From: a virus
Taxonomy: Duplodnaviria; Heunggongvirae; Uroviricota; Caudoviricetes
Direction: 5' to 3' (one strand)
IMG/VR virus record: IMGVR_UViG_3300037502_002518
Location: 69,712-116,838 of that record
DNA length: 47,127 nucleotides
The translations under genes were made by a program, and so were the position numbers. Positions 3,790-37,775 of the stretch are shown piece after piece (position 1 is the stretch's first letter; each line of letters starts with the position of its first letter). The notes below the pieces were generated by a model. The model saw only the letters and a list, made by a program, of their open reading frames with translations. It was not told the DNA's origin and made no database searches.

Positions 3790-3823
3790 AAAAATATGAA
3801 GAGGTTATCCTCTTCATATTTTT
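3790..3823 (-). terminator. Intrinsic terminator
   Basis: AAAAATATGAAGAGG-ttat-CCTCTTCATATTTTT, with a T-tract following on the minus strand. Confidence 0.75.
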
Positions 3824-4625
3824 AAACAAATCTATAACTTGTTCTAACTTTAATGTCTTGGCGACCTGCTCTTGCACTTGATGGAACAACAATCTTCATT
3901 GTTACATGTGCAAAGTTTGCTTTTGCTTCCGCATAAGACCCATTATTCTCTCCACCCAAAATTCTATCTTGGTTATTTGTTGGAGCGCTACGCTCTTTTT
4001 TTACAGTTCTATATTGTAAATTCCCTAATTCTTCCTCTTTGAACTCTGCCAAATCTTCTGTAGACCAAGTTGGCTCTGTAGGTAAAGTTGTTCCTGCACT
4101 AATAACTTCATAAACAAATCCATTGTCTACAGTTGGTGCAATAATGTCTCCAATGTTGTACGCAACACTTGCTGACCATGTTGTAGTTGTTCCACTTAAA
4201 ACATCTGGATGTGTTGTAATGCCTGTTCCAGAGCCAATTGGATGTGTAATATCTGCTCCAATTTGTGCAAAGTTTGTACTTGTCTCTCCTAGTGTTGGAG
4301 AGAAAGCTTGAAACCATTTTGTATCACCATTGATTGCCCAAACTTCTTTGCCTGTAATATCACCATTGTCACCTTCACTATCTTTAATCCCAATGGTTAC
4401 ATCTTCCATTGTTGGCGCATAATCCATTGAGTCTTTATTGTTCCAAACTAGAAAGTGGTGAAAATCTTCTTCAGATGGGACATAACCTGCATCTACAATC
4501 CCAAAATCATAAGGGTCTCCTGTTATTCCATATTCAATTGTGTTTGTTGTATTGCTTGGGTCTGTCACTAACGTCTCTGCATCATAATTCCACCAAGTTA
4601 CTACTGGGGCTGTTAATTTAGCCAT
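3822..4625 (-). CDS. Tail/baseplate protein with a W..S.AY.IGD carbohydrate-binding-like repeat
   Basis: Contains WSASVAYNIGDIIAPTVDNGFVYEVISAGTTLPTEPTW, paralogous to repeats in 11342..11992. Confidence 0.55.
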   Translation of the reverse strand: MAKLTAPVVTWWNYDAETLVTDPSNTTNTIEYGITGDPYDFGIVDAGYVPSEEDFHHFLVWNNKDSMDYAPTMEDVTIGIKDSEGDNGDITGKEVWAINGDTKWFQAFSPTLGETSTNFAQIGADITHPIGSGTGITTHPDVLSGTTTTWSASVAYNIGDIIAPTVDNGFVYEVISAGTTLPTEPTWSTEDLAEFKEEELGNLQYRTVKKERSAPTNNQDRILGGENNGSYAEAKANFAHVTMKIVVPSSARAGRQDIKVRTSYRFV

Positions 4626-5810: not shown

Positions 5811-6866
5811 CTATTCAAAAGTTACTCTTACTCTTACATTTCTATTAAAGTGCAAGTATCTTGTTTCGATTCCAGATGGTATATGGAAGGCTACCCCTGT
5901 CATGTCACCATTTGAGAGTAAATCGTTATAGGCAGGGGGCAATGTCATCCATTTTTCTTCACTTCTTTGCCAGCCTGTGCCATCTTGACCTACTCTATTA
6001 GTGTACTGATTGTATAAAGGTGGCTCATTCATTGGTAATCCTGTGTTTGGCTCTGGTGATAATCTTGTCAATTTGTGAGTCCACACATCTAACTTTATTT
6101 CATGAGCATAACCTTGTGAGTCATTTCTTTTTAGATAAAGTTCAATAGACTTGACATTTTTACCAAGGGCTTCTGCCCTAACTTGAGATGGGAATAAAAT
6201 ACAACCCTTATGATTACCCCAGTTTGTTCCTACATCTGCTCCATCAAGCTCTGTCCATGATGATTGGTATACATAATATGCATCCTCTGGTGTTGAACCA
6301 CTTGATTCGGTTCTCCATCCCCAATTATCCCTCCAAGAGCGTGTTTCTACAAATACCCCTGTTCCATCTCCAACTTCAATTGGGTCTGGAACAGGAATAG
6401 GTTCTGGTGTTTGGTTTGAATAGTCACCATCTGGCAATGACTCTCCCTCAGTACCCACATAAACATTTGTTGCCCCTGTTTTTATGTCTGTTTTAAAAGA
6501 ACTGGCATGAGTTTGAACTTCGCTATTTACAACAGCAGATAAAGTGTTGTTTACATATACATTAGATAAATTTCCTTCAGTCACTTGACCTGTTGCACTT
6601 GTATGACCATTATCTCCAACAGGAGAGTCATTTTCTGTTGTTGAAGCTCCAACTGTAACTGCTTTGCCTGACTCAACATATACATTTGATGAATTTCCAT
6701 TGACATGTCCAGATATTTGTGTGCTATAGTATTCTGTATACCATCCTCCAACACAATTTCCATTACTGTCCAAATATTTACAAGTGTCCCATTTTTGCTC
6801 TTTTGTGTGATTTCCTGCTGTTATTGTAGTTAAAGCTCCACCATCTTTAGCTATTTTATTTCCCAA
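5811..6866 (-). CDS. PAAR-like spike-tip protein with Pro-rich linker and C-terminal extension
   Basis: Likely TTG start at 6866 (RBS GAGAGGCGG) giving MGNKIAKDG. Repeats SSNVYVESGKAVTVGA, SNVYVNNTLSAVVNS, TGATNVYVG. His residues in GNHT, NGHT, QTH. The ORF caller start at 6923 overlaps a regulatory motif. Confidence 0.65.
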   Translation of the reverse strand: MGNKIAKDGGALTTITAGNHTKEQKWDTCKYLDSNGNCVGGWYTEYYSTQISGHVNGNSSNVYVESGKAVTVGASTTENDSPVGDNGHTSATGQVTEGNLSNVYVNNTLSAVVNSEVQTHASSFKTDIKTGATNVYVGTEGESLPDGDYSNQTPEPIPVPDPIEVGDGTGVFVETRSWRDNWGWRTESSGSTPEDAYYVYQSSWTELDGADVGTNWGNHKGCILFPSQVRAEALGKNVKSIELYLKRNDSQGYAHEIKLDVWTHKLTRLSPEPNTGLPMNEPPLYNQYTNRVGQDGTGWQRSEEKWMTLPPAYNDLLSNGDMTGVAFHIPSGIETRYLHFNRNVRVRVTFE

Positions 6867-6901
6867 AAAAACACCGCCTCTCGCAATTATTTTCCAAATT
6901 G

Positions 6902-6953
6902 CCCCTCTACTAATAATAGTCACTTCTCCTAAAAAATGTGACGGTTTTTATCC
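6902..6953 (-). promoter_or_regulatory. 52-bp conserved motif, copy 1 (candidate late promoter/activator site)
   Basis: 44/52 identical without gaps to 37724-37775. Contains a GTCAC-N-GTGAC dyad next to an AT-rich -10-like segment. Confidence 0.6.
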
Positions 6954-6985
6954 GCCACATTAGATAGGAAAATCCTTTACAAATC

Positions 6986-9900
6986 CTAGTTTAAGTCGAT
7001 TCTGCTACCAACAACTTTTACTCCGCTTGACGATATTTCAATATAATTGTTTGCATCTGCTCTTAGCCTTAAAACGTCTCCGCCAGATGATAATTCAACT
7101 CCAGTAAATGTCGCCAGTCCAGAATCATTAAAAGTTAAATGCTTTTCTTTTGCATATGAGTCTATATATTTAAACATAAATTTATCACTAGTCTTTTGAA
7201 TATAACCTCTGTCGTTTCCGTTATGGTCTCCTACTCCCCAAATCATTTCGGGGTAAGAGGTTTGAGCTGCTCCATTCAGTCTTATTATTAATTTTTCAAT
7301 ATCCGTAACACTTGTGTCTCCTGTCATTAGTTTCACAAAATTACTTCTGATATAAACATAATTTCTATATGTTGTAGGGTCAGCAGACTTAGGAATAGAC
7401 TTTAAACTGTTAACCATCAAATCAGAAATAAAGGCATCCGTTTCTTTGTCAAGAACTAGCTCTGACTCTCCGCCTTCTGGTTCAACAATAAGTTTCCTTG
7501 CTCTAATAGTTCCATCCATTGCAATCCAAATTCTTTTTTCTCCACCTACATCAATGGCGAACCCTTCTTCTTGATTTAATCTAATTTCTTCTCCATTTGA
7601 CCCAAAGACTGTTATACCTGTCTCTGCATCTAAAAGAATATTATTACCTAAATCACCATCAATAATTTTTAACCTTTTAGCAACTAAATCCTCTGCAATC
7701 AATGTTCCATCTGGAATGTCTGGATTCCCGATTGAACCATATATTTTATTCTCCCAATATACTCCATTCCATTTTTGTAAAGCTAGTCCATTTGTTGCAT
7801 TTAAAATAGCTCTATATTTCCCATCATCTCTAACTGCAACAAATCCTGCATCGCTCATCATTAAGTTGTTATAATATCCACCCATATTTATTCCAGAATA
7901 AGCCATAGAGTCTTCAATTTTATTTCTTAGTTTTTCTGCTTCGTCATAATATGTTTTGAATTTAAGAATAAACTCTGCTCTGTCGTTTACAGGTGTTGTT
8001 TGTTCTGTCAGTTCATCTGTTACATTAATCAATATTGGCTCATGAGGAGGTAGTGAAGTAACTTTAATGAAGCTACTAATATAAGAGACAAGCGAAAGAT
8101 ATGCATTTCTTAATGGTGCAATAGAATATAAATCTATATTACTCGCTGTCTCTGGGAATCTTTGAGTGTAAATGTCAAAAGCTCCATCAAGGTTTATATC
8201 TTTATCTCTACTGCTTCTTTGATATTTTTCAGCTTGAACTTTTAATGATTGATATTGAGAGCTTATTTGGTTCATTTCTTTTATAATTAACAGTTTTTCA
8301 TCTGTTGTCATCTTCCCGTCTTTTACAATCTTATTGAAGAACCCTAAGTTGAACTCTCCCGTTTCTGCATCAAGAATAATGTTGTCAAATTCATCATTGC
8401 TTACAATTTTAATGTTGCTCGCAATCATGTCTCTGCTGTATAATATTCCTGTATTTGGGTCTGTCCAAAAAATCTTTTTCCATCCGTCTGGATGTTTTAG
8501 GGTGTCAGTTGTTAATTGCTCAACAGCAAATCCTTCTAAGTCAGATATTGTGACCTTGTTGACATTGTTAAATGCTGTCAGACCAAATTCATCTGGGGTT
8601 TCATCAATAAGACCTAATTTCATTACCAGATTTCCTTCTCTGTCGAAAATCTCACCTTTAGAGCCTTGGAATTTCAAAACTCCGTCTTCGTCTTCTAGTG
8701 CAAGGTTTACACCCATGAAAATTTTTCCATACACACGCTCCCCAATAATTCCCTCGCTCGTTATGGCATGCTTCCAAGTATTCCCACCATCGTTGGTGAT
8801 AGCAATCATACCATTAATACCAACAAGATAAACATTTGGGTCATTAGGGTCTCTAATTATTAACCCTCTGTCTGAGATTTCAACAACTTGGTCTTTTGCT
8901 CCAACAATTGCCTGTTTGTTGGCATCCCATATACCATTAATAATTTCATTAATTTTACCATTGTTTTCTTTAGATAAGTCCCACTTCCAACTATCAATAT
9001 CAACAACAGAAGATGAGCTATATGACTTATAAAGCATTTCTAAGAATTTGTCTTGGTCGTTCTTTAAAGCTTCAACATTACTAATTGTTAAACTAATGTC
9101 ATCTGTTTCAAAGTCGTGTTCAATTTCAGTAATCTTAGCTTTGTAATTCATCTCTAATCTTTCATACTCTATTCTAAACGAATCTCCCAATACAACCTTG
9201 TCCCAGTTGTGCTGTTCTGTTATAGCAGAGAATAAATTAAACAATGAAACTGTAAGAGTAATTCTTTGTTCTTGCATTTGGTCAAAAACTTTGTGACCTT
9301 CTTCAAATAAATCATCTGGGTCAGTAATATTGGTATCTTCCCATTCCTCATCGTGAATGAAAGAATTCCATTCTGTTATCTCATCGTTAGTGAAGTTGTT
9401 GTGAATTGCAAGCTCTTCTCTAAGCAATTCAATCTCATAGTCCACTTCTGCAACATCTTGCTCATAGTATATATTCTCATTCTCTTGGCTATCAATTAAA
9501 CCTTTTTGAATTTGAATTTCGTTTAATATAGAATCTCTTTGTGAAACCAAGTCATTCATTTCGTCTTCTAATATTGGTTTCATTGTTTCATCATATCTAT
9601 TGTCTGCACTATCTATTTCATCAGACTTTTTCGCAATCCTAGTGTTTAGAGCATCTCTTTCATCAAGTAAGGTAGCAAGATGTGACTTTAGTCCAAATAG
9701 GTTGCTATCTTCATTATTTAATATCTCTTGCAGAGTCCTCTTTTGTCCAAGTAGCGTATTGAATTCATCTTCTTTACCTCTAACTTTATCACGATATTTT
9801 ATAATAGCATGAGCAAGTTCATCACTCATGTAATCACTTTTAGTTATTACTGTATAAGTCCCATCTGGATGTAATTCTTCTTCATATGGCTGAAGGTAAA

Positions 9901-10666
9901 CAGAATAATCTTCGATATATGGCGCTCCTGTTGGATTGACCGACTGAACACTCATTCCTTCTTTTCCATATAGATATAATCTTGTAATGATATTATCTGC
10001 ATTGTCATTTTCTTCTACATTTTCAAGTAGCTTGCCATACTTAATTTTAAATCCTTTATCTTGACCAATATTTGATGGCATATAAAAGCTTACTTTTCTA
10101 CTGTTTGTGTCCCACACAATCAATGCATTGAATGTTTTTGCAATATTGACTATTGTTTCTAAAACTGTTGCCTTAGAAACTTCCATAGAGCGATATTTCA
10201 TCACGAACTCCGAGTCTACATATCCCACGTTCCAATTTGTTTTCTCAAGAACAAATTCTAGTTGCTCTTGTGCATTCATTGAATCTTCTTCAATCTCTCT
10301 TAATAGCTTTGAATTTAATTCAAACCCTAAAGAATAAGCCTCAATGTCTAAATATTCTTCATCTCCACCATTTTTTGTAATGCTACTAATTATAAAGTAT
10401 TCTTCATAATTTTCTAGCACAAATTTAATTAAGTATTTCCCTTTGATAAGTCTTGAGCTATCTATTTTTACAATCTCATGTCTTCTGTTTATAAAATTTG
10501 GTATTCTAAATGTTAATTCATCTAATGCACCCAGTTTTTGATTAAACTTTATATCATAAGCGTTGTTGATATTATCAATAATTTCTCTATTTGGTTTACA
10601 TAGCTTTAACTTTGGCTTGGAGGACTCTTTCTTTAAGTCTATCTTTCCTAATTTTGTGTCAATCAT
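6986..10666 (-). CDS. Tail tip hub/central fibre-spike protein (Tal/YomG-like) ending in a gp5-like beta-helix motif
   Basis: N-terminal prophage-tail hub motifs (WNVGYVD, IKYGKLL, ITRLYLYGKEG), coiled coil, beta-rich repeats, C-terminus YIEISSSGVKVVGSRIDLN. Follows the Dit genes. Confidence 0.8.
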   Translation of the reverse strand: MIDTKLGKIDLKKESSKPKLKLCKPNREIIDNINNAYDIKFNQKLGALDELTFRIPNFINRRHEIVKIDSSRLIKGKYLIKFVLENYEEYFIISSITKNGGDEEYLDIEAYSLGFELNSKLLREIEEDSMNAQEQLEFVLEKTNWNVGYVDSEFVMKYRSMEVSKATVLETIVNIAKTFNALIVWDTNSRKVSFYMPSNIGQDKGFKIKYGKLLENVEENDNADNIITRLYLYGKEGMSVQSVNPTGAPYIEDYSVYLQPYEEELHPDGTYTVITKSDYMSDELAHAIIKYRDKVRGKEDEFNTLLGQKRTLQEILNNEDSNLFGLKSHLATLLDERDALNTRIAKKSDEIDSADNRYDETMKPILEDEMNDLVSQRDSILNEIQIQKGLIDSQENENIYYEQDVAEVDYEIELLREELAIHNNFTNDEITEWNSFIHDEEWEDTNITDPDDLFEEGHKVFDQMQEQRITLTVSLFNLFSAITEQHNWDKVVLGDSFRIEYERLEMNYKAKITEIEHDFETDDISLTISNVEALKNDQDKFLEMLYKSYSSSSVVDIDSWKWDLSKENNGKINEIINGIWDANKQAIVGAKDQVVEISDRGLIIRDPNDPNVYLVGINGMIAITNDGGNTWKHAITSEGIIGERVYGKIFMGVNLALEDEDGVLKFQGSKGEIFDREGNLVMKLGLIDETPDEFGLTAFNNVNKVTISDLEGFAVEQLTTDTLKHPDGWKKIFWTDPNTGILYSRDMIASNIKIVSNDEFDNIILDAETGEFNLGFFNKIVKDGKMTTDEKLLIIKEMNQISSQYQSLKVQAEKYQRSSRDKDINLDGAFDIYTQRFPETASNIDLYSIAPLRNAYLSLVSYISSFIKVTSLPPHEPILINVTDELTEQTTPVNDRAEFILKFKTYYDEAEKLRNKIEDSMAYSGINMGGYYNNLMMSDAGFVAVRDDGKYRAILNATNGLALQKWNGVYWENKIYGSIGNPDIPDGTLIAEDLVAKRLKIIDGDLGNNILLDAETGITVFGSNGEEIRLNQEEGFAIDVGGEKRIWIAMDGTIRARKLIVEPEGGESELVLDKETDAFISDLMVNSLKSIPKSADPTTYRNYVYIRSNFVKLMTGDTSVTDIEKLIIRLNGAAQTSYPEMIWGVGDHNGNDRGYIQKTSDKFMFKYIDSYAKEKHLTFNDSGLATFTGVELSSGGDVLRLRADANNYIEISSSGVKVVGSRIDLN

Positions 10667-10680
10667 CTTACCACCTCACT

Positions 10681-11328
10681 TTATCCTTGAATTGTTTTAA
10701 ACTCTAATTTAATTGCCATCTCAAAGTCGCCTTCTCCAGAAAGGAGATTATCTCCAACTTCTAATTCTAAAAATACATCATTATGATTGTTGTAACGGTA
10801 TGTCATAGGCAAATCTGTAACAATATCTTCATTCTCACAATCGACATAAATTGTCTCTCCATTGTTAATCATTCCAAAAATCATTTCTTTTCCAGTCGTT
10901 TCATTTTTTAGCTTTATATCTCCACTGCCATTGATTTTCTTCAGCCAAACCTCTGGCTTTAGTGGGACATCACCTTCATTTTTTATATTGAATGCTCCAA
11001 TCAAGCTGAAGTCAATAGAATTGAATGTTGGTGAAGCCCCTCCAATGTTAGTTCCTAAGTCAAACTCCAACATATATTGCATCTTTAAATTCTCAAGATA
11101 AAAACCATTATCATAAAAGAATCTATAGGGGAATCCATAACTGACATCAATCCACTCACCCCAGTCAATCCCTCCATTGTATGACAATCTGGAAAGGACT
11201 CTCATTGAACCTCCACCATTTGAACTGTCAATGTTAACATCAGAAAAGTAATGATTGTAGTTTGAACTTACATCTATTTCCTCGGAAATATACGAGCCAT
11301 TAAGATTGTAAATGTCCGTCCATTTCAA
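10681..11328 (-). CDS. Distal tail protein, C-terminal half (second piece of split Dit)
   Basis: TTG start with RBS AGGAGGTGA. C-terminal NEGDVPLKPEVW...GETIYVDCENEDI...YRYNNHNDVFLELEVGDN is the usual C-terminal part of YomH-type Dit. Confidence 0.7.
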   Translation of the reverse strand: MKWTDIYNLNGSYISEEIDVSSNYNHYFSDVNIDSSNGGGSMRVLSRLSYNGGIDWGEWIDVSYGFPYRFFYDNGFYLENLKMQYMLEFDLGTNIGGASPTFNSIDFSLIGAFNIKNEGDVPLKPEVWLKKINGSGDIKLKNETTGKEMIFGMINNGETIYVDCENEDIVTDLPMTYRYNNHNDVFLELEVGDNLLSGEGDFEMAIKLEFKTIQG

Positions 11329-11341
11329 GGGCTTTCACCTC

Positions 11342-11992
11342 CTATTCTATTTTTCCAAAGCCTCTAAAATTTGAAGCATCTCCGCTTTCTTGCCATCTTG
11401 CCATTTTATATGTTCTCCATTGGACAGACCCATCAATAACTTCTGTCGTTGGTGTTTGTGACCAAGTTGGAGAGTTTGAACCAGATACACCTGCTGTTGT
11501 ACATCTGTAATAATAATATGGATTTTGCTGACCTGCTGGTACAACAATGTCACCAACATTGTACGCATAATCTGCAATCCACTCTTGAACGTCTCTCATG
11601 TCTAAAACTGTCGAACCACTTGCAACAGTAAACATAGGTTCGTTCAAAACAGAAGTTCCACTTTCAATACATTGGTAAACATGACCATTGTGTGTTGTTG
11701 GCATTCTTAAATCTCCAACAGAGTATTCTGTATTCGCTTCCCACTCTGGAGCATAAGTTCCTTCTTGAACATTAATCCATCCTGCATACTCACCAACTAA
11801 TGGAGTTAAATTCCAAAGTCTCATACCTCTTGGGTACGAGACTCCCTCTGTTAAGAAATATTCTAAAGTCATTGTTTCATTATCTATTAAATCATCAATT
11901 TTTTGAAAGTTTTCACTTAAATGATTAATTGTATCGATTACATCATCTGTAATTTCTGGCTTTTTTAATAAGTGCTTACTTGTTTCTATCAA
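11342..11992 (-). CDS. Tail-fibre-like accessory protein with nested W..NT.Y.VGD repeats
   Basis: N-terminal LLKKPEITD...INHLSENFQKID anchor-like motif, two W.A..[EA]Y.VGD repeats, terminal W..FGKI motif. Confidence 0.6.
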   Translation of the reverse strand: MIETSKHLLKKPEITDDVIDTINHLSENFQKIDDLIDNETMTLEYFLTEGVSYPRGMRLWNLTPLVGEYAGWINVQEGTYAPEWEANTEYSVGDLRMPTTHNGHVYQCIESGTSVLNEPMFTVASGSTVLDMRDVQEWIADYAYNVGDIVVPAGQQNPYYYYRCTTAGVSGSNSPTWSQTPTTEVIDGSVQWRTYKMARWQESGDASNFRGFGKIE

Positions 11993-12582
11993 TCGAAATC
12001 ACTCCATTTCATCCCATTTAACATGCTCCAATTAACATTTGCCATATCTATTTTTAAAGTTCCGTTGTCTAATGTTAGTGTGTCAAATTTTGTAATATCT
12101 AAGTCATTGGCTGTAGATAAATAATTTTTTACAAACCTCGTATTATCAAAATACATATTATCAATTACTTGCTGTTTTGAATAGCTATATGGGCTATCAC
12201 ATCTCATCCTTACAGAGAAATATCCTTGACCTGCACCAGTATGAGTTAAGGTTGAGTCTCCAATCGGCATACAGTAAAATATCCTATTGTTATTTGAGAC
12301 AGTGTAGAATGGTTTGTAAAAATCTTGGTTGAACAACCTAGCAACTCTTCTTATTTTATCTTCATCATAATCAAACTCAAAAGCAAATGACAAATCAAAT
12401 TCCAGAGGGGATTTTTCTACCCTCTGGAAATATGGTGTGCCTTTACCTGCTACTTTAACTTCTTTAATTTCCCTATCTGGGAGGAATGCTTCTTCAAACA
12501 TTCCTCCATCAAGCTTTACATTGAACAGTCCTAAGTCATTAGACTTTATTCCATCGTAACTAAAATGAATACCTTCTAGCAC
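11989..12582 (-). CDS. Distal tail protein, N-terminal half (Dit/YomH-like)
   Basis: HFSYDGIKSNDLG, PLEFDLSFAF, RIFYCMP and GYFSVRMRCDSPYSYS are Dit N-domain motifs. Immediately downstream of the TMP. Confidence 0.8.
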   Translation of the reverse strand: MLEGIHFSYDGIKSNDLGLFNVKLDGGMFEEAFLPDREIKEVKVAGKGTPYFQRVEKSPLEFDLSFAFEFDYDEDKIRRVARLFNQDFYKPFYTVSNNNRIFYCMPIGDSTLTHTGAGQGYFSVRMRCDSPYSYSKQQVIDNMYFDNTRFVKNYLSTANDLDITKFDTLTLDNGTLKIDMANVNWSMLNGMKWSDFD

Positions 12583-15500
12583 TACACCCTACCTCCTTTT
12601 TCTCTTTTTAGTTTTGTCATTAATTGTCTTGATACTGCATCCAATTCTTTTCTATCACCACTGAAGTTATCAACATTGACATCAAGGTCATAGTTGTAAT
12701 TCACCACTTGTGGCTCACTACTTCCACCTACAGCATTTTTAATGGCATTTTGTAATTTTATATAATCAATACTGTTCAATTTTGAAGAGATTGATTTCAT
12801 AATATCACTTTGTCCTCCACCTTTAGGCAGAATATCTTTAATGCCATCAACAATTTTTGCTGTTTTAAGAATGTCTTTTGTTTGAACTTTGTTAGCAATC
12901 ATCTCTTGTTCATGTAGCATTGCAATTTTTCCACCGCTAAACTTAGGTGTAATTCCACCCTTGTTTAATTTTGCAATCCACTTTCCAGAAGACCAACCTG
13001 TTTTATTTCCATACTTAACATTGTACCATCCGTTTTTTTCACCCATTATTTGCATTTCTGAGCCTTTTTTCATAACTCCAACAATTCTGTTTTGTGTTCC
13101 AATACCTGTTCTGATAAACAGGTCTCCTATTGTTTTCCCTTTTTGGGTTTTTGGTTTGCTTGGCTCTGAAGATTTATTTGATGAAGAAGATGAGCTTGAG
13201 CTAGATGTTTTGTTTGTATCATAGTTCTCTGCATCAGTAGGGTCTGTTTTTACACTATCGCTTGCTCTCTCTTCGGACACATAATCTTTTTCTCCTGCTA
13301 GGTCTTTTCCTTTAATGCTGTCATAGTCTGGAATTGACATGTTTTTAAGTCCTGTTAGTTCGTCTATTGCTTCTCTTATTTTAGATGTTAGATTTCTTTC
13401 AACACTGTTCCCTAAACCTTCCATTCTAGAAGATACATCTTTATCCCAAGCTGTTAAGTCTTCTAACATATTTGAGAAGTGACCGTTCATTATATTTTCT
13501 CTCATATGTGAGAATTTTTCTTCGTCATTGAGCATATCTTCCCAATGTTTTTCTCTTTCTTCTCTTAACTCTTCTTGATTTTTAGTGAAATTCTCGTAAT
13601 CTTCTTCATAACCTTCTCTTTTGGACTCTACTTTTTCTATCTCTTCTTCTTTTAAGTCTTTAAGGTTTTCTTTTCTTAGAGTAAGCTCTCTTTGATACTT
13701 TAGTTCTTCGATTTCTGACAGTTTGTCTGACAGTTGTTCTTCCAGTTCTTCTCTTTCTGCTCTGGCTCTATAAGAATCATCTAGAGATAAGATATTGATT
13801 CTCTCTCTAATTTTCCTCTCTTCTTCTTGGAGACCTTGTAAGTCCATATTAAACGTTCTTTCAGCATCTTCCTTGTCAAGCTCATCAATCTGCTTGTCAT
13901 AAATATCTGAGATTGCATCCATTTGCTCATCGAGGTGCTTCATTCTCTTTCTATGAGCCTTATCTTCTAACTTCATCGTTTCTTCGTATTTTTTTTCTTC
14001 AGCTCTTCTTTGAGACTCTAATTGTTCTTTATAAATCTCGACATATGTGTCAGCAATTTGAGAATAATAATTTTCCATTTCTTTCTGATTGTCTTTAATA
14101 GCCATATTCGAGTCATACAAGGCATCTTCTTGTTTTCTAATCTCTTCATTTATTTTCGCTTGAGCTTCATGATTTCCTTCAAACTCTTTTCTTTGCTGTT
14201 TTAGTTTTTTTATATTTTCTTCTATATCTTTTGATTGACCTTTGTTGTACTGCATTATTTCTTTTAATGCAGAAATGTTTCCTTTGTAATCGTCCTCGTC
14301 AATATCATATTCCATTTTGTCTCTTATTCTTGTAATTGCTTTGCTATAGGCTTCTGCTTCTCTTGCAATTTTTTCAAATGTTTTATTCATTTCTAATTCA
14401 TGAAGCAAATTTATCATTTCTCTTGTTTCTTCATTTGTACTAAGGAGAGCTTCTTCCGTAGCATTTAACATTTTTACAATTTCTTCTCTTTGTGCTTGAG
14501 TTAAATTTTTATTATTTTTCAATTGGCTTTCTAATGCTCTAATTTCATCTCTATATGTTTTTTCTGCCTCTTTAGATTTTGTAATTTTCCGATTAACTAA
14601 TCTTTCATATGCTTTAGATGATTCATTGTATAGACCCATTGAATATTCAATATAGTTAATCTCATTGTCCAGTGTATCTCTTTGTTTTTCAAATCCTGCG
14701 CTTATGGCACTTACAAGTTCCATATTTAAAGATTCTATTTGAGAACCTATAGAATAAGACTCACTATATAATGAATTTAATCTCTTTGTTGCTTCATCAA
14801 TTTCTTGTTGAATCTCTGCTCTTTTAGCTCTAGCTGTCTTGTTGTCTGAATCATCATCTAGTCTAATAAGACCTGTTTTTTGAATGTTTTTATTCTTGAT
14901 TTGCTTTTCTAGAGATTTAATTTCATTGTTTATAGCTTTCTCTTTTGCTTCTGTTAGTCTAATTTCTTCTTTTATGCTGTTTTGGTATTGTTTACTTCCT
15001 TCTGAATATTTACTTTGGATTGCTTGTTGTTCCGCAATCTTTCTATTTAAGTTGTCAATTTTATTTGTATATTCATCTGTTACATAAATTGCATCTTGAA
15101 GCTCTTTTGTGGCATCAGATTTTCCAGATTTAGAGCCACTAGAACTAGAGCTTCCACCAGTTATACTACCAAGGTTGCTAGTGAAATCGAAATTTAATAA
15201 TTTTGTTAAACGTGCCTCTTCTGCGCCAAGGTCTTGGTATGCTCCAATGAGGCTTCCAACTTCATGTTTCGCATGCATAGCTTCAGAATATCCCCAGTAA
15301 TTACCTTGTCTTAGCTGTTCTTGACCTTTTTGTTCTAACTCCTTTAGGTCTATGTTGGCAACTTTTTGTTTTGCATCTATTAAAACTCCATATGCATTAA
15401 CTCGTGTCAATATAGCCCTAATGTCTGTTTCTGCCATAGCCTTAGCGTTTTTTGCCTCTTGTCTTTTTGATTCAAGGTCTGCTTTGAAGGCTTTTTCTTT

Positions 15501-18500
15501 TATACTTGCCAACTCTCTTATTGACTCTCCAGTTATCTTAATTGTTCCATTTTCTATTTCCATCTGGTCAATCAACTCTGGGTGGGCATCAATTAAGTCA
15601 AATGTTTGACTTAATGACATTTCTTGACCATCTGCCAAATCTCTATAAGCTGAATCCAAATCGCTAATTTCATCAACAAAACCTGTTAAAATAGGGTTAA
15701 CATCTCTTGCCCAATTAAATGAGCTTGCTACCTCTTTATTTTTTTGTGCAACTTGGATTAAAGAGTCTCTTATTGACCTTAATACTGAGGCTAATCTTTC
15801 TCCTTCGCTTGAACCATCATTAACTTTACTAATAAGGGTGTTGAAGGTTTGCTCCATTTCTTCGGATGTACCAGTCATATTCATCAAGCTGTCAAGGTCT
15901 ACATCGTATGCTTCTAAACTGCTAAAAGCTTCTGACATAAGTGATGGTAAATCATCTTTGATAAATCCTGCCAAATCACCATTTGCAAAATCTTCTAGAT
16001 TGTTGACTATTTCATCCTTAAATGTTGTCAAGAAAACAAACTCATTAGAATCTGTTTCTACATCCATATCTTTCAATATAAATCCAAACATTTCATTCAC
16101 ATCTGCTGTAAATGATTCCATATTTGATTGAATGTCTTCTTTGTTGTCATTTATTTTTTCATTTATTTCATCATTTGTCACTTGAAGAGAGTCTATAGCC
16201 CTATTTAAGAAGTTTTTTGCTGAATCAACATCCCCTTGAATTAATGCACTGTCTACATTCATATCAAATTCCATCATTATTGATGAAACCTCTCCAGCGC
16301 CAAGGTTTGACTCTTCCAGTCTTCTCTGAAACTCTTTTCTAAGTTCGATAGCTTTTTTATCCATCTCTTCAATTGGAAGATTCATTCCTGCTATCTGTTC
16401 TTTTAGAAAGTCTTCTGCAAATTCAAGCGCTTCTATTCTTGACTGATTTAGATTGCTATCTCTTACTAAGCCTGCTCCAGCTCCAACAGACCTCTCTAGT
16501 TCAGAATAATCAGCTCCATCTAACTCTTCTTCAAACAGTTTTCTTTTATTCTTTTCATATTCTTCATCTTTCGCCTTGTTCATTTTTCTGATAGCTTCTG
16601 CTGTCTTTAATACTGCTTCTCTCTCGCTATCGTAATATGCAATCATCTCTGGCATTGCATCAATAACATCATCTCTTAATCCAATGTATCTTTCATATTG
16701 AGATGTGTCTAATTCTTCTACATTTTTTGAATGAAGGGACATAAATTCGTCAAAGTTTACGCTTTCTTTTGCTGTTTGTAATCTTTCATATGCTGTTATT
16801 TCATCCTCTAGTCTCTCTATGTTTCTTTCTCTTGCTTCTTTTTCTCTGTTTGCTAATTTTATAACTAGATTTGTAGCTGTTGAAATAACTGCTATCCATG
16901 CTGTCATTTTCAAAATACCAGATATTACATGTTTCCCAGCTATACCAAATCCTCTTAATGACATACTTGCACTTTTTGTTGCTTCTCCTGTTCTTCCCAT
17001 TTCTCTTCCGAGTATTGTTGTTTGGGTTGCTGTTGTTGCTATATCTCTACCAGATTTCTCTGCTGGAATAGAAGCAAGCCCATCTCTCATTGCTCCAATA
17101 TTAAATACAGACTCCCTTAACTGTTTTGAACCCATTACGGAGAACAGTGTTGCCCCTGTTGTTAATATTGCTGTAGAGCCAAAGGCATCTACAAGTTGTG
17201 TCATAACATTTACCAAGTCTGTCAATAGGTCGATTCCCAACTTTAGAGCATCTTTATCGAGCAATGTGTTCCAGAAAGTCTCTGAAGCAACTCTAAGTTG
17301 ATTCATTCTGTACTGAATGCTTTCCATGTACTTTTCCATTTCTCGTGTTGCTGAACCTGCTGAGTTTAGACCAGCTTCATATGAACCCTCAGCATCATCC
17401 CAGTTTTGAATCATGGCAGATACGATTGCCCCTTGTCTTTTACCCCCAAGTTTTTCTGTAATGTTTGCTTGTTCAATATCTGACAAATCTTCCCAGTTGT
17501 CTTTTAATGATTGCATAATGTCAAATGTTGATTTGAATGTGTCTTCATCAAGCATAATTGTTTCACCAAAACTATTGAACATGCCCTCTAGTTCTGGAAT
17601 AAGCTCTTTGATTTCTTCCCCTTCTTCATCAACACCTCTTATTCTCATAGCAACCGTCTTAAGTGCATTCCCAACCTTTTGTGGGTCTTGAACACTGGCA
17701 TTTGCAGATGTAACTAAAGCTACCGATTGCTCTAATGTGTTACCTGCTTGATAAAGTGTTGATGCCGAACGTTGTAATGCTTCACCAATACCTTGTTGCG
17801 AGATGGCAAAGTTATTACTTACTTCGTTAAATACATCGACTACTTTTCTTACTGATTGCCCAGTGCTATCTACTTCAATTCCAAAGCCTTTGATTGTTGA
17901 AATGATACTTGTTGTGGCATCATCAATGTTCATGTCACCAACGTTAGAGTATAAAATTGCGTTCTTACTCAATTCTGTTGACTCTTGAAGTGTATAACCT
18001 AATTTTTGGAACTGTGTAGCTGAATCAATAGCTTCTTTTGTTAATACCCCTAATGTATTCCCAATGTCTGTAGCTGTTTGTTCAAACTCTCTCAGTTCTG
18101 TTGTTGTTCCAGATGTCACCTTTCTTAAGTTGGTCATGGATGCATCAATATCAAGAACACCTTGGAACCCTTGTTGGATTTGTCTCATTCCTGCATAGAA
18201 CATTGTCATTGCTGACATCCATACTGGAATTTTCTTCATTGCTTCTCCAAGTCTACCAAACATAGAGTTGTGTCTATCTGTTACATCATTTCTTCCAGCA
18301 AGAACCATCTTATCAAATTCTGCAATTTCTTTTTTGACATTGTTTAAACCATCATCAAAATCTCTACCACTCAATGTTGTTAAACGTTCTAACTCTTCAT
18401 TGATTCTCTCAATTTCAACTCTAGCTTTTCTAAATTCATCCCTAGCATCTAATGAATTAAATGCACGAGATGCACGAATAGATTTTGTATCAAATCTGTC

Positions 18501-19727
18501 AACAAGTTTTTCTAAATCTAATTGCTGTTTCTTTCTTTCTTTTAATGTGTCTTCGTGAACACGACCAACATTTTTTGCTACAGCTATTTGATTCTTTAGC
18601 TCATCCTTTTGAAGTTTGGATAGTTTTGCTCCGTTTTGACGATGATTATTGATTAACTGCTCTGCTCTTTCAACTTCTTTTGATGCATACAGGTACTCTT
18701 CTTGAGACATATTTAAGCTGTCAAGATATTGTTTTGCTTCTGATAACTTTTGGTCTTGACCTTCTAAGAACTGAATGTCTGGTTGATTTGCAACGATTCT
18801 ATTCAGTGTATTCTCAGCATCTTTTAGCTTGTCGTCAAACTCTACTGTTGTTCCACCAATTGATGCAGATACTTCATTTATTTTTTGATAAACCTTGTTT
18901 ATATCTTCCTTGCCTAACACATCTTCAAATATTTTTGTATCAGCATTAGTTTTTAACTTATCTATTTTAGATTGTCTGTCTCTTTCTAAACCAATCTCTT
19001 TTTCTAAATTAAGTATTGTTTCATATTGAGACTTTAATGATTCAACTCCAGATATTTGCTCTTTAATATCTTTCGTTCCACCATCTCTTATCGAATCAAT
19101 CTCTTTTAGAACTTTATTATACTGACTTTCTTCTTGAAGACCTTTGCTTTTCAAGTTGAGAATATTAGACTCTATCCCTTGAATAGCTGTCAATATACCC
19201 TCTCTAGCTTTCAAATGGTCATTTTTTATTTTTTCATGGTTAATTTCTGTCTTTATTGTACTAGAGCCTTTGTCGCCTTCTTTTACCGTCATTTTTCTGT
19301 AGTCATTACCAGCGACTTTTGTAGTCTCTTTCGACATCTTACCTGTTGAGCTTCTTTTTACCGTCTCTATTTCTTTCAATAAGCTTATTTCACTGCTTAG
19401 AGATTTTAAATACTCATCTGATTCCTGCTTCGTTTCTCTGTAGCTCTTCTTTGCTTGCTCTTGAGATTTTTTAGCTACATCTCCTGCTTCTTTTGACTCT
19501 TTTTTAACTTTTGAAAAGTCTACGTCTGAACCTAAAGATTTTAGCTTGTTAGCTAAATCGGAAATATCCTTGTTTGCTTTTTCTAGTCCTTCAATGTTTA
19601 ACTTGATTTTAATTGGATAGTCTTTTGCAACCTTTGATACAACTTCACTAACTTCTTTGTCAAGATGATTTTTAAAGTTGGTTATATCAGCACCAATTAA
19701 AATATTATAAGCGTTCTTATTTGCCAA
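12582..19727 (-). CDS. Tape measure protein with C-terminal SH3b domain
   Basis: 2381 aa, mostly coiled coil. TP901-type TMP core (LRKVT...SATQFQKLGY...VSNNFAIS...VGNALKT). SH3b LFIRTGIGTQNRIVG...NGWYNVKYGNKTGWSSGKWI. Confidence 0.95.
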   Translation of the reverse strand: MANKNAYNILIGADITNFKNHLDKEVSEVVSKVAKDYPIKIKLNIEGLEKANKDISDLANKLKSLGSDVDFSKVKKESKEAGDVAKKSQEQAKKSYRETKQESDEYLKSLSSEISLLKEIETVKRSSTGKMSKETTKVAGNDYRKMTVKEGDKGSSTIKTEINHEKIKNDHLKAREGILTAIQGIESNILNLKSKGLQEESQYNKVLKEIDSIRDGGTKDIKEQISGVESLKSQYETILNLEKEIGLERDRQSKIDKLKTNADTKIFEDVLGKEDINKVYQKINEVSASIGGTTVEFDDKLKDAENTLNRIVANQPDIQFLEGQDQKLSEAKQYLDSLNMSQEEYLYASKEVERAEQLINNHRQNGAKLSKLQKDELKNQIAVAKNVGRVHEDTLKERKKQQLDLEKLVDRFDTKSIRASRAFNSLDARDEFRKARVEIERINEELERLTTLSGRDFDDGLNNVKKEIAEFDKMVLAGRNDVTDRHNSMFGRLGEAMKKIPVWMSAMTMFYAGMRQIQQGFQGVLDIDASMTNLRKVTSGTTTELREFEQTATDIGNTLGVLTKEAIDSATQFQKLGYTLQESTELSKNAILYSNVGDMNIDDATTSIISTIKGFGIEVDSTGQSVRKVVDVFNEVSNNFAISQQGIGEALQRSASTLYQAGNTLEQSVALVTSANASVQDPQKVGNALKTVAMRIRGVDEEGEEIKELIPELEGMFNSFGETIMLDEDTFKSTFDIMQSLKDNWEDLSDIEQANITEKLGGKRQGAIVSAMIQNWDDAEGSYEAGLNSAGSATREMEKYMESIQYRMNQLRVASETFWNTLLDKDALKLGIDLLTDLVNVMTQLVDAFGSTAILTTGATLFSVMGSKQLRESVFNIGAMRDGLASIPAEKSGRDIATTATQTTILGREMGRTGEATKSASMSLRGFGIAGKHVISGILKMTAWIAVISTATNLVIKLANREKEARERNIERLEDEITAYERLQTAKESVNFDEFMSLHSKNVEELDTSQYERYIGLRDDVIDAMPEMIAYYDSEREAVLKTAEAIRKMNKAKDEEYEKNKRKLFEEELDGADYSELERSVGAGAGLVRDSNLNQSRIEALEFAEDFLKEQIAGMNLPIEEMDKKAIELRKEFQRRLEESNLGAGEVSSIMMEFDMNVDSALIQGDVDSAKNFLNRAIDSLQVTNDEINEKINDNKEDIQSNMESFTADVNEMFGFILKDMDVETDSNEFVFLTTFKDEIVNNLEDFANGDLAGFIKDDLPSLMSEAFSSLEAYDVDLDSLMNMTGTSEEMEQTFNTLISKVNDGSSEGERLASVLRSIRDSLIQVAQKNKEVASSFNWARDVNPILTGFVDEISDLDSAYRDLADGQEMSLSQTFDLIDAHPELIDQMEIENGTIKITGESIRELASIKEKAFKADLESKRQEAKNAKAMAETDIRAILTRVNAYGVLIDAKQKVANIDLKELEQKGQEQLRQGNYWGYSEAMHAKHEVGSLIGAYQDLGAEEARLTKLLNFDFTSNLGSITGGSSSSSGSKSGKSDATKELQDAIYVTDEYTNKIDNLNRKIAEQQAIQSKYSEGSKQYQNSIKEEIRLTEAKEKAINNEIKSLEKQIKNKNIQKTGLIRLDDDSDNKTARAKRAEIQQEIDEATKRLNSLYSESYSIGSQIESLNMELVSAISAGFEKQRDTLDNEINYIEYSMGLYNESSKAYERLVNRKITKSKEAEKTYRDEIRALESQLKNNKNLTQAQREEIVKMLNATEEALLSTNEETREMINLLHELEMNKTFEKIAREAEAYSKAITRIRDKMEYDIDEDDYKGNISALKEIMQYNKGQSKDIEENIKKLKQQRKEFEGNHEAQAKINEEIRKQEDALYDSNMAIKDNQKEMENYYSQIADTYVEIYKEQLESQRRAEEKKYEETMKLEDKAHRKRMKHLDEQMDAISDIYDKQIDELDKEDAERTFNMDLQGLQEEERKIRERINILSLDDSYRARAEREELEEQLSDKLSEIEELKYQRELTLRKENLKDLKEEEIEKVESKREGYEEDYENFTKNQEELREEREKHWEDMLNDEEKFSHMRENIMNGHFSNMLEDLTAWDKDVSSRMEGLGNSVERNLTSKIREAIDELTGLKNMSIPDYDSIKGKDLAGEKDYVSEERASDSVKTDPTDAENYDTNKTSSSSSSSSSNKSSEPSKPKTQKGKTIGDLFIRTGIGTQNRIVGVMKKGSEMQIMGEKNGWYNVKYGNKTGWSSGKWIAKLNKGGITPKFSGGKIAMLHEQEMIANKVQTKDILKTAKIVDGIKDILPKGGGQSDIMKSISSKLNSIDYIKLQNAIKNAVGGSSEPQVVNYNYDLDVNVDNFSGDRKELDAVSRQLMTKLKREKGGRV

Positions 19728-20238: not shown

Positions 20239-21240
20239 CTAAATTTCTAACTTCTTCTTGTCCTCTTGGATTTTATCATAGTTTTCTTGTAGGTAGTGCG
20301 CTCTTGTTACATCTGTACCAGAGTGATTTAACAAAGTTGAGACATCTTCTAATTTCATGCCTTTTTGATAAAGTAAGTTAGACCCACTATGCCTCAAGTC
20401 ATGAACATGCAAGTCCTCATCAACATAATCCCCAATGTCTTTTATCCATCTCGTTTGGATTGTGACTTTACTAATCTTTTCTCCCTTTTTGCTTAAGAAT
20501 AAATGGTCTGAATTGAACCCAATTTCTTCTCTTTCTTTTATCCAAGCCTTAATAGCCTTTAATGCTCTGTCTGACGGAAACAAGTTTACAACCTTTCCCT
20601 CTTTCTCCAAAACCTCTTTTATGATTCCATTATCAAAATCTATTTGACTAATTTTTATATTTGATAAAGCGTTTACACGAGCCATGGTTGAAAGTGCAAC
20701 CTCAAAGAATGCTGTTAACTGCAACTCTTTACCTTTTTTAAGCTTCCTTCTAATTGTTTCTACTTGTTCTTTTGTTAAATAAGTTTGTTTTACTTGAGGT
20801 TTTTCATTTGGTCTGATTCTAATTCTCTCAATGAAATCCATAGGGTTTACTTTAATTTTTCTTTTTTTTAAAAAATAACCAAATAAAGATGATAAGGTTG
20901 CCATTCTTCTTTGCATTCTTCTTTCATTATTGCCTAGCTTTTCAATACAAAAAGTGATATAGTCTTCTAAAATGTCTACCATGTCATCAATGCCAATATC
21001 ATCTTTCATAATTTCTAATAAGTCTTCTTCTTCAATAATTCCCTCATCATACCTGTCTTTTAAAAACACAAAGAACTGGTCTAAATCATTTTGATAGGAT
21101 TTTTTTGTTGACTCTGACAAGTTTAAACTTTTATAATTAAAGAACCTCTTGGCATATATTTTATTTTCTTCACAAACTTTATCCAATTTTGATTTTGTTG
21201 TATATTTTACATATTTCCTTTTTTCTTTCATTCTCGTCAC
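20239..21240 (-). CDS. Tyrosine recombinase within the tail operon (YomM-like)
   Basis: Full catalytic set: ARVNA (R), HDLRH (HxxR), LLNH...TRAHY (H, Y), plus a SAM-like N-domain. Confidence 0.9.
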   Translation of the reverse strand: MTRMKEKRKYVKYTTKSKLDKVCEENKIYAKRFFNYKSLNLSESTKKSYQNDLDQFFVFLKDRYDEGIIEEEDLLEIMKDDIGIDDMVDILEDYITFCIEKLGNNERRMQRRMATLSSLFGYFLKKRKIKVNPMDFIERIRIRPNEKPQVKQTYLTKEQVETIRRKLKKGKELQLTAFFEVALSTMARVNALSNIKISQIDFDNGIIKEVLEKEGKVVNLFPSDRALKAIKAWIKEREEIGFNSDHLFLSKKGEKISKVTIQTRWIKDIGDYVDEDLHVHDLRHSGSNLLYQKGMKLEDVSTLLNHSGTDVTRAHYLQENYDKIQEDKKKLEI

Positions 21241-22346: not shown

Positions 22347-23120
22347 TTACTCAGTGTAACGAATCATCTTAACCATTTCAGAGTCACGACCATCTTTAAA
22401 TACATCGACATTAAAGTCAAATACAGATGGGTCTCCGTCTGGTTGCATAGTTAAAGTGAAGGCTGTTGAAATCTTCGCTTTAGGAATATAGATTTGAACC
22501 ATTTCATCAACACCAGTTTGTTCATTTCTCCAAACCATGTCACCAACGATTTCATAGAATGCTGGGAATTTGTTTGAATCAATTGTAATAACTGATGCAT
22601 CTTGAACTGTTTCAAACTTGTAGTACACAATAACAAGTTCACCTTCAGCTAAATCTGCTGTAGGGAATCCAATTACATTATTTGTTACTGTTGCATTTGT
22701 CATGTCAACTTTTACCCCTTGACCATAACCATCTTCTGTTTTGAAGATTTGAATGCCAGTTGCTAGAGGTGTGCGAGCAAGAGTAACTAATGTCTCTGTT
22801 CCCGTTCCTGAATCTACTGTGGTTAATACTTCACGATTACGAACAATTTCTTTCTTTGTCTCTAACTCTGTACCAGATTGAATAGAAATTGCTTTTGGAT
22901 TTAACAATGCATCTTGAATTGCAAAGGTTACTGTACGACCAAAATCCCAACCAACTAAACGGTTGTTGCCTTGTCCACCTGTCGCATAAACTGTTTCTGC
23001 AGTGTTCTCCATGTTTGTCATTTTTAATGTGTCTAAATATAGTTCAGCTTCACCAGTCAACTTGTTGTATAAAGTGATATTGGCAACGTCATGAACTCCA
23101 AAACGTTCTGCTTTGCTCAT
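22347..23120 (-). CDS. Major tail tube protein
   Basis: FGVHDVANIT, VYATGGQGN.RL.GWDFGR, I.IDSNKFP, LTMQPDGDPSVFDF. Highly-expressed codon bias (cgt, gct). Strong RBS. Confidence 0.9.
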   Translation of the reverse strand: MSKAERFGVHDVANITLYNKLTGEAELYLDTLKMTNMENTAETVYATGGQGNNRLVGWDFGRTVTFAIQDALLNPKAISIQSGTELETKKEIVRNREVLTTVDSGTGTETLVTLARTPLATGIQIFKTEDGYGQGVKVDMTNATVTNNVIGFPTADLAEGELVIVYYKFETVQDASVITIDSNKFPAFYEIVGDMVWRNEQTGVDEMVQIYIPKAKISTAFTLTMQPDGDPSVFDFNVDVFKDGRDSEMVKMIRYTE

Positions 23121-37723: not shown

Positions 37724-37775
37724 CCCCTCTATTACTAATAGTCACTTCTAGAGCAAAATGTGACGTTTTTTATCC
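37724..37775 (-). promoter_or_regulatory. 52-bp conserved motif, copy 2 (candidate late promoter at the head of the HU-PhoH-tRNA-structural transcription unit)
   Basis: 44/52 identity to 6902-6953, same orientation. Confidence 0.6.

Follow-up and report, generated by a model that had tools for sequence, protein, structure and literature searches.

A PAAR cap predicted on the central fibre of a siphophage without a tail sheath

PAAR cones are generally presented as the sharp tip of contractile machines, such as myophages, type VI secretion systems (T6SSs), extracellular contractile injection systems and R-type tailocins. What would such a cone do at the end of a tail that does not contract? 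The question is raised by a gene in a DNA stretch of 47,127 nucleotides (the window), which is the last 47 kb (positions 69,712 to 116,838) of the 116.8-kb IMG/VR virus record IMGVR_UViG_3300037502_002518. Direct terminal repeats bound this record, and its completeness by CheckV is 100%. An earlier note, made from the letters alone, had read the locus as a PAAR-capped, T4-gp5-like spike on a siphovirus-type tail. We think it quite probable that the phage is a sheath-less siphophage with a PAAR domain on the end of the Tal trimer, which serves as the mount for a single tip domain. The PAAR fold, a docking model, the absence of a sheath and two siphophage relatives with the same Tal-PAAR pair support the reading of the note. 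The features on which the argument turns are the following.

6986-10666, minus strand: gene for Tal, the central fibre protein (1226 amino acids), with a YOMG_N + Prophage_tail N-terminal part and a long C-terminal extension
6989-7009, minus strand: predicted docking strand GSRIDLN at the Tal terminus (residues 1220-1226)
6902-6975, minus strand: candidate intergenic control region, with a hairpin, a T-run and an overlapping 52-bp motif
5811-6866, minus strand: gene for the 351-amino-acid protein formed by PAAR and tip domain, with a likely TTG start at 6866 and the stop codon at 5811-5813
6450-6866, minus strand: PAAR domain (residues 1-139), from AlphaFold2 model, family profile and fold match
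6702-6824, minus strand: long beta-hairpin inserted in the PAAR cone (residues 15-55), with DSSP strands 15-32 and 38-55 modelled at a predicted local distance difference test score (pLDDT) above 90
6645-6692, minus strand: PAAR repeat 1, SSNVYVESGKAVTVGA (residues 59-74)
6522-6566, minus strand: PAAR repeat 2, SNVYVNNTLSAVVNS (residues 101-115)
6453-6479, minus strand: PAAR repeat 3, TGATNVYVG (residues 130-138)
6357-6449, minus strand: linker rich in Pro, Glu and Asp (residues ~140-170), modelled at pLDDT 56-68 without secondary structure, and variable in length and sequence in the relatives P0002-4
5814-6356, minus strand: C-terminal tip domain (residues ~171-351), a putative receptor or glycan binder

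The structure prediction and the family profiles establish residues 1-139 as a genuine PAAR fold. The AlphaFold2 model built on the family alignment A1 has a mean pLDDT of 87. A structural search against PDB representatives (VIA-align) matched it to T4 gp5.4 with Z 14.0 and a root-mean-square deviation of 2.1 Å over 96/96 residues, followed by E. coli c1882 (Z 13.3), phiKZ gp163.1 (Z 12.7), the phage P1 PAAR (Z 11.6) and Pvc10 (Z 7.5), whereas unrelated chains gave Z 3 and below. The matches to the first four extend over the full length of these PAARs. The top five matches of Foldseek were all PAARs. The sequences of the family lead to the same identification. An exhaustive phmmer search with residues 1-175 gave 16 representatives, all of them stand-alone proteins of 137-159 amino acids that align to residues 1-139, and PF05488 of Pfam is matched by 17/17 members of A1 (best E 5.6e-14). 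Two relatives above the PF05488 gathering threshold of 27 bits are gp40 of Brevibacillus phage Sundance (46 bits) and a Lysinibacillus prophage PAAR (50.6 bits). The A1 profile found Tas1 (9e-5), c1882 (4e-4) and T4 gp5.4 (6e-4) among PDB chains; hhalign aligned A1 to gp5.4 with a probability of 81.5% (E 1e-5), and a hidden Markov model made from A1 picked gp5.4 in the T4 locus at 2.8e-6. A phmmer search of PDB sequences with the whole 351-residue protein gave nothing useful, and a further relative in the family, P0006, was found on contigs of about 1 kb only. The PAAR identity claimed beforehand for 5811-6866 is thus borne out for the first 139 residues (Z 14.0 to gp5.4; PF05488 in all family members).

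The literal Pro-Ala-Ala-Arg motif is not in the repeats, which carry G-K-A-V, N-T-L-S-A-V and a C-terminal V-Y-V-G instead. Since the solved member gp5.4 does not have it either (GIAVLV, GKKAVQ), the motif gives the family its name but is no requirement for membership. The hairpin of residues 15-55 is a gap in the short metagenomic relatives P0002-4 and is absent from canonical PAARs of ~95 amino acids; in the alignment to gp5.4, only 96 residues are matched across model residues 3-138.

Classical PAAR members have a metal site near the apex, formed by three His and one Cys. In the 351-residue product the His motifs are GNHT (18-21), NGHT (86-89) and QTH (118-120). Alignments to gp5.4 and c1882 place His20 (TAGNHT) at gp5.4 His14 (TAGHEA) and His88 within the loop that carries gp5.4 His56, while His120 adjoins the invariant Thr119, the residue opposite gp5.4 Cys83 in the alignment, and Glu78 stands one residue before the position of gp5.4 His46. 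His20 is kept in 14/17 members of the family, His88 in 11/17 (plus 4 with Asp), His120 in 15/17 and Glu78 in 16/17; the two sequences without His120 are also without His or Asp at position 88. The three His and the Glu are thus placed like the canonical ligands, and judging from these alignments the cone would probably hold a metal ion in a His3-Glu (or water) site.

How would the cone be held on the fibre? In the known systems, gp5.4 caps T4 gp5 and PAAR proteins cap VgrG through the pairing of each repeat with one chain of the trimer. Tal ends here in ...YIEISSSGVKVVGSRIDLN before the stop codon, and the earlier note had named a similar ending for T4 gp5. The gp5 sequence in NC_000866 does terminate in ...SISSGQYTIDGSRIDIG, that is, GSRIDIG. 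This extreme C-terminus is strongly kept among Tal proteins: 63 homologues, retrieved with the last 267 residues of Tal, end in G(53) S/T(53) R(59) I(58) D(59) L(52) N(61), and diverge widely upstream of this ending. Such near-invariance at the very end of the chain would be expected of a shared docking surface. The endings in relatives include GSRIDIN in Sundance, GTVINLN in Psychrobacillus phage Perkons and GDRIDLN in a Logan contig (L020).

The docking of PAAR on the end of a Tal trimer, which had been proposed as a check, was modelled by complex prediction, in which PAAR residues 1-142 were set against three copies of the C-terminal 140 residues of Tal. The 3:1 model scored 0.85 and the best control 0.00; the mark of 0.85 was reached by 58/80 solved complexes and 2/110 mismatched pairs, counts that serve only as a rough guide here, given the custom alignments and the 3:1 stoichiometry. 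Three runs had at least 97% of the contacts in common, with a partner pLDDT of at least 89. The confident interface joins model residues 134-140 of each Tal copy, GSRIDLN, which are the only Tal residues in it, to PAAR residues 59-66, 99-107 and 132-139. These segments correspond to the three repeats named in the earlier note: in the model, residues 59-66 and 69 at repeat 1 touch Tal copy 3, residues 99, 101-107 and 110 at repeat 2 touch copy 2, and residues 132-139 at repeat 3 touch copy 1. The prediction therefore supports a PAAR cone that caps the trimeric Tal end with one repeat per chain.

Apart from its terminal strand, Tal shows no likeness to gp5 in sequence. It matches phrog_6211 at 5e-253 and is 49% identical to Sundance gp39 in the N-terminal part and 43% in the C-terminal part. 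Its likeness to gp5 is limited to the last 16 residues (50% identity, hhalign P 0.0024, probability 12%), and phmmer searches of PDB sequences with the whole protein or its last 140 amino acids found no relative. As a homologue of gp5 Tal was therefore rejected: in sequence the terminal strand alone is alike, and the domains are YOMG_N and Prophage_tail. The description as a T4-gp5-like spike stands for that strand and not for the protein as a whole; by analogy, Tal may work at the tip as the gp5 and VgrG spikes do, without membership of that family.

Two arrangements of Tal genes in related loci deserve mention. In Perkons (L005:2118-7467) and in a Logan contig (L017:3624-8451), Tal is split into a hub gene (YOMG_N/Prophage_tail, 639-798 amino acids) and a distal-fibre gene (816-881 amino acids) with the conserved ending, so that the fibre half behaves as an exchangeable module. 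In Paenibacillus (L016:6001-9036, L019:6001-9222), proteins of ~1010-1073 amino acids with a Tal-type fibre C-terminus and a (G/T/S)RIDLN end are encoded alone, outside tail modules and with no PAAR gene nearby, in small elements with a serine recombinase, regulators of helix-turn-helix or ImmA type, or an archaeo-eukaryotic primase. These elements resemble mobile satellites that would supply the tail of a helper phage with a substitute distal fibre.

Half of the 351-residue protein (~171-351) is a separate domain, which the earlier note does not mention. In the metagenomic proteins P0002-4 (308-317 amino acids) a shorter PAAR is joined to the same domain, at 51-71% identity, and one of the three is encoded in the same slot, behind a Tal of 1546 amino acids that ends GDRIDLN. 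Among cultured phages, the domain was found only at the extreme C-terminus of two proteins: the 1511-residue hub protein gp126 of myophage Shbh1 (27% identity, E 3e-12) and the 1732-residue tail fibre gp45 of Rossellomorea phage phiT1 (24% identity, E 4e-6). A domain that ends tail-tip proteins elsewhere, and that hangs here on a flexible linker from a monomeric cap, is most simply a distal binding module; it is probably a receptor- or glycan-binding one, present once per virion. Other searches with the tip domain returned P0002 and P0003 only (word-indexed homologue search), the unnamed phrog_25601 and one 'tail protein' family (PHROGs), and, by language-model features, unnamed viral proteins of ~150 amino acids as the nearest neighbours (0.96). 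A scan of IMG/VR with an alignment of the PAAR-tip fusion gave no confirmed locus.

Could the domain on a real PAAR cap be instead a cell-wall enzyme, such as a depolymerase or hydrolase, or a delivered protein like those of the T6SS PAAR-toxin fusions? The C-terminal extensions of T6SS PAARs are typically effectors, as Shneider et al. reportedly described in 2013, and the fold prediction for the domain failed. The Shbh1 protein with the same end is annotated as a glycerophosphodiester phosphodiesterase hub protein, but it shares only the last ~150 of its 1511 residues, and the annotated enzyme domain need not be included in them. The same domain ends the phiT1 tail fibre, no catalytic family was matched in Pfam or PHROGs, and the nearest named feature neighbours are carbohydrate-binding modules. 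We therefore think that an enzyme or a cargo is unlikely, and prefer the binding module.

The start of the PAAR gene and the region upstream of it bear on how the cap is produced. The open reading frame (ORF) is listed as 5811-6923, from a GTG that would give a form of 370 amino acids, and the sequence LGNKIAKDG begins at the TTG of 6866. This TTG, 120 nt past the Tal stop, is likely to be the true start: homologues start MGN... or MGER... at that very point, a GAGAGG lies 10 nt upstream, residues 2 and 5 are in the predicted docking face, and the GTG of 6923 falls within a 52-bp intergenic motif. The GTG was rejected as start, for besides lying in this repeated motif it has an AGGAG-GTG spacing of 2 nt and would put 19 hydrophobic residues on the docking face. 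The strings quoted in the earlier note, namely the three PAAR-like repeats, the three spaced His, the MGNKIAKDG start and the Tal ending, are all present at the places given for them.

The intergenic hairpin (6925-6971, minus strand) begins ~10 nt and ends ~50 nt after the Tal stop, with -21.7 kcal/mol, z -4.9 and a T-run behind it; a scan for consensus terminators did not flag it. It is possibly an attenuator that uncouples the cap from Tal. The motif of ~52 bp occurs at 6902-6953 and at 37724-37775 (both minus strand), in copies 30.8 kb apart of which the second is also intergenic. It reads …CGTCACATTTT…AGAAGTGACTATTA.TA.TAGAGGGG, holds a GTCAC/GTGAC dyad as well as the GTG that an ORF caller would pick as PAAR start, and is likely to be a phage-specific promoter or regulator site.

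A PAAR of this family is encoded directly 3' of Tal in Sundance (gp40, E 1.8e-47) and Perkons (ORF184, E 1.8e-38), and also in two JGI contigs of 130-137 kb (L010, L018), three Lysinibacillus prophages (L013-15) and the Logan contig L020, so that the Tal-PAAR position is the same in the window and eight other loci. The next gene in the loci of the relatives is of YomF_N type. A search for related loci with the narrower alignment A6 retrieved only the three Lysinibacillus loci. In SPBc2 and Sophrita there is no such PAAR gene, and their Tals are without the long extension, which rules out PAAR as a general trait of SPbeta-like phages. The absence of both the gene and the Tal extension from SPbeta points to an add-on of the Sundance/Perkons lineage.

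It might be argued that the gene is a lysogenic-conversion ('moron') gene for a PAAR-led toxin or virulence factor and no part of the virion. PAAR proteins are placed by PHROG 281 under 'moron, auxiliary metabolic gene and host takeover', a hairpin and a promoter-like motif of its own precede the PAAR gene, and gp40 of Sundance was read as a virulence factor by its authors in 2016 (PMC4909266). We consider this very improbable, since the gene is fixed in the tail module, between Tal and the YomF_N-type gene, in every relative examined, co-occurs with a conserved Tal ending like the PAAR-binding end of T4 gp5, and has the docking model on its side. Moreover, most members of the family are bare PAARs of 137-159 amino acids with no cargo, and the hosts are Bacillota, which are not known to use T6SSs. 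A structural cap remains the better explanation.

The other half of the reading is the tail itself. The late genes of the window are all on the minus strand, and those that define the tail are as follows.

31271-32953, minus strand: terminase
29775-31256, minus strand: portal, followed by capsid genes and then by a run of small tail-completion genes
22347-23120, minus strand: putative tube protein (257 amino acids), called 'major tail protein' in the vB_BanS-Thrax siphophages and structural protein in the Lactococcus 949 group
12582-19727, minus strand: tape measure protein (2381 amino acids), with PF10145 plus SH3
11989-12582, minus strand: first half of Dit (DUF6558)
10681-11328, minus strand: second half of Dit (DUF6558_C/SPP1_Dit)

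The layout is that of a siphophage, with a PF10145 tape measure, the Dit halves (DUF6558, DUF6558_C and SPP1_Dit) and then Tal, and the order tube, tape measure, Dit and Tal had been correctly read beforehand. So had the lack of a sheath gene between head and tape measure: from the capsid genes to the tape measure there is no ORF above 333 amino acids, that one is integrase-like, and nothing is sheath-sized. The whole-genome scan that had been suggested as a further check also found none: the profiles for sheath (PF04984, PF17482), Baseplate_J (PF04865) and gp25 (PF04965), which gave matches in control genomes, had 0 matches in the complete genome bounded by direct terminal repeats. The sheath profile matched nothing in Sundance or Perkons either. 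The tube protein and its neighbour had zero matches among PDB sequences.

By electron microscopy, Sundance is a siphophage with a tail of 404 ± 37 nm (PMC4909266), and Perkons a siphophage with a non-contractile tail of 381 ± 16 nm (PMC13245101). Their tape measures of 2528 and 2439 amino acids, respectively, correspond to about 0.16 nm of tail per residue, and scaling from these two phages gives a tail of ~370 nm for the tape measure of 2381 amino acids. The tail of the phage in question, which is uncultured, is non-contractile as judged from its genes, the microscopy being of Sundance and Perkons only. A contractile tail whose sheath had escaped the profiles by divergence, with the PAAR in its usual setting, is hardly credible: only four Pfam families were used as probes and several ORFs of the tail module have no functional annotation, but the capsid-to-tape-measure ORFs reach 333 amino acids at most, the longest being integrase-like, a Dit-Tal pair behind a tape measure of 2381 amino acids is a siphophage layout, the tube protein has its match in the BanS siphophages as their 'major tail protein', and the nearest cultured phages that have this module are seen to be siphophages under the microscope.

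The closest cultured relative is Sundance, and remoter ones are Perkons, the Tsamsa/Sophrita group, SPbeta and the Lactococcus 949 group. The phage is a probable member of the large SPbeta/Sundance-type siphophages, with a host among the Bacillota. Some other traits of its tail module were observed. The Dit gene is split (10681-12582), with a CBM5_12 protein of 216 amino acids encoded between the halves; a split Dit with a gene for ~215-333 amino acids in between is found likewise in Sundance, Perkons and three metagenomic relatives (the five loci being L003, L005, L010, L017 and L018), which suggests an old conserved arrangement of the lineage and not a recent insertion. Two tail-module proteins (11342-11992 and 3822-4625) have a common CBM5_12-like segment and match phrog_20658 ('head decoration'), a label that is probably wrong given their position in the baseplate/fibre region. 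A gene resembling tyrosine recombinases (20239-21240; phrog_1, E 4e-40) sits within the tail module, flanked by the tube/chaperone genes and the tape measure, a placement that resembles SPbeta-type phages; multiple integrases have been reported for Perkons.

Several points weigh against a PAAR-mounted tip as proposed here. The 351-residue protein by itself scores below the Pfam PAAR threshold, with 14-18 bits (14.4-17.7) against 27, and its E values are 0.044 (370-residue form) and 0.0043 (first 175 amino acids) in Pfam, and a weak 0.0018 for phrog_281 in PHROGs. The docking score may reflect likeness to the solved look-alikes 4JIV, 4JIW and 4KU0 and not the affinity of this pair. P0002-4 are without two of the four putative ligand positions, so that a metal is not essential to such a cap. 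The tip domain had zero matches in Pfam, its fold prediction, from an alignment of 4 sequences, is unusable (pLDDT 37.8), and its resemblance to CBM96 is weak (feature score 0.91, 122 shared features). Finally, the hairpin and the promoter-like motif lie between the Tal gene and the PAAR gene, and with such an upstream region of its own the cap may be expressed apart from Tal.

We nevertheless favour the PAAR-mounted tip, which could work as follows. The Tal trimer would plug the tube and extend as a long central fibre, with the last strand (GSRIDLN) of its three chains forming a three-sided blunt end. One copy of the 351-residue protein would sit on that end, each PAAR repeat pairing with the terminal strand of one Tal chain, and the cone would cover the exposed strand edges, thus closing and stabilising the fibre tip. 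A monomeric PAAR on a trimer would turn the three-fold fibre into a single mount for the C-terminal domain, held on a flexible linker of ~30 residues. This single-copy tip domain might be the first to touch a component of the cell wall, as a sensor of a glycan or a receptor. The T6SS logic, in which an evolved PAAR carries cargo, would be applied here to host recognition. The earlier note had left the choice between a puncturing and a presenting tip. As the tail cannot contract, the cone is not a driven needle, and the separate C-terminal domain also makes presenting likelier; puncturing is thus disfavoured. A borrowing of the tip from contractile machines, as the note put it, would presuppose a direction of transfer. 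Direct computation gave the PAAR fold, the position of the gene, the lack of genes for a contractile tail and the pairing with a conserved Tal ending. The docking has the support of a model, and we infer the metal, the location of the PAAR protein in the virion and the role of its C-terminal domain.

Comparison with known systems helps in locating what is particular to this one. T4 gp5.4 on the gp5 beta-helix (4KU0, 5IV5) has the same cone fold, the same monomer on a trimer, a partner ending in GSRID(I/L) and a gene shortly after that of the spike. However, the T4 tail is contractile, and gp5.4 is a bare cone of 97 amino acids, whereas the present protein adds a hairpin insert of 40 residues and a C-terminal domain of ~180 residues. 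The partner is the lysozyme/OB-fold protein gp5 in T4 and a YomG-type Tal here. At the putative metal site, His120 stands in place of gp5.4 Cys83, and nothing corresponds to gp5.4 His46, whose position Glu78 adjoins. T6SS PAARs with extensions (Tas1, 6OX6; Tre23, 7PQ5) also have an N-terminal PAAR, a linker and a cargo domain, in one copy per spike. These and the plain ones, such as c1882 and VCA0105 (4JIW and 4JIV), sit on VgrG in Gram-negative bacteria, where the secretion system is contractile, and the extended ones carry toxins; the cargo here resembles the ends of tail fibres, and its carrier is a phage fibre on a non-contractile tail.

Closer to home, gp40 of Sundance and ORF184 of Perkons belong to the same PAAR family and occupy the slot behind a Tal of comparable ending, but they are bare PAARs of 148-161 amino acids without the C-terminal domain. 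The YomH-YomG-YomF tail tip of SPbeta has the same module order, the YOMG_N/Prophage_tail hub (~30% identity) and the YomF_N-type gene that follows in the relatives; YomG, with 875 amino acids, lacks the long extension and the GSRIDLN end, and no PAAR was found in SPBc2. A single-copy receptor binder on the trimeric tip of a siphophage central fibre is known from T5, where pb5 sits on the pb4 fibre, for a Gram-negative host. Neither pb5 nor pb4 is known to involve a PAAR or to be related in sequence or fold to the present proteins, so that the analogy is functional only.

The PAAR module is therefore known, and what is new is the siphophage Tal setting, the conserved socket motif and, in this phage, the fused tip domain. 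In a comparative review, phage PAARs are those of myophages and unfused (PMC7824862). The GenBank label of Sundance gp40 is 'putative PAAR repeat-containing protein', ORF184 of Perkons is annotated as hypothetical, and the 2026 paper on Perkons makes no mention of PAAR (PMC13245101). A full-text literature search for PAAR with siphophage, Tal or SPbeta brought up no paper that describes a non-contractile tail bearing such a cone.

Where the tail does not contract, the main job of a PAAR cannot be force-driven puncture, which suggests capping, stability and cargo presentation as general roles of the cone. A testable sequence rule follows, that is, a Tal ending G-S/T-R-I-D-L-N and then a small PAAR gene, with which genes now labelled 'hypothetical' or 'virulence' could be re-annotated in phages and prophages of Bacillus, Paenibacillus, Lysinibacillus and Brevibacillus type. 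Sundance and Perkons are cultured and thus ready as experimental systems, and the fused tip domain is a candidate determinant of host range, with one copy per virion. More tentatively, PAAR may act beyond contractile systems as a three-fold-to-one-fold adaptor, in one lineage of large Bacillota siphophages, on which a single exchangeable tip sensor is mounted, so that a monomeric module borne by PAAR would recognise the host or trigger infection at the very tip. The GSRID(L/I) strand, which T4-type spikes and siphophage Tals share, would then be a universal socket for PAAR.

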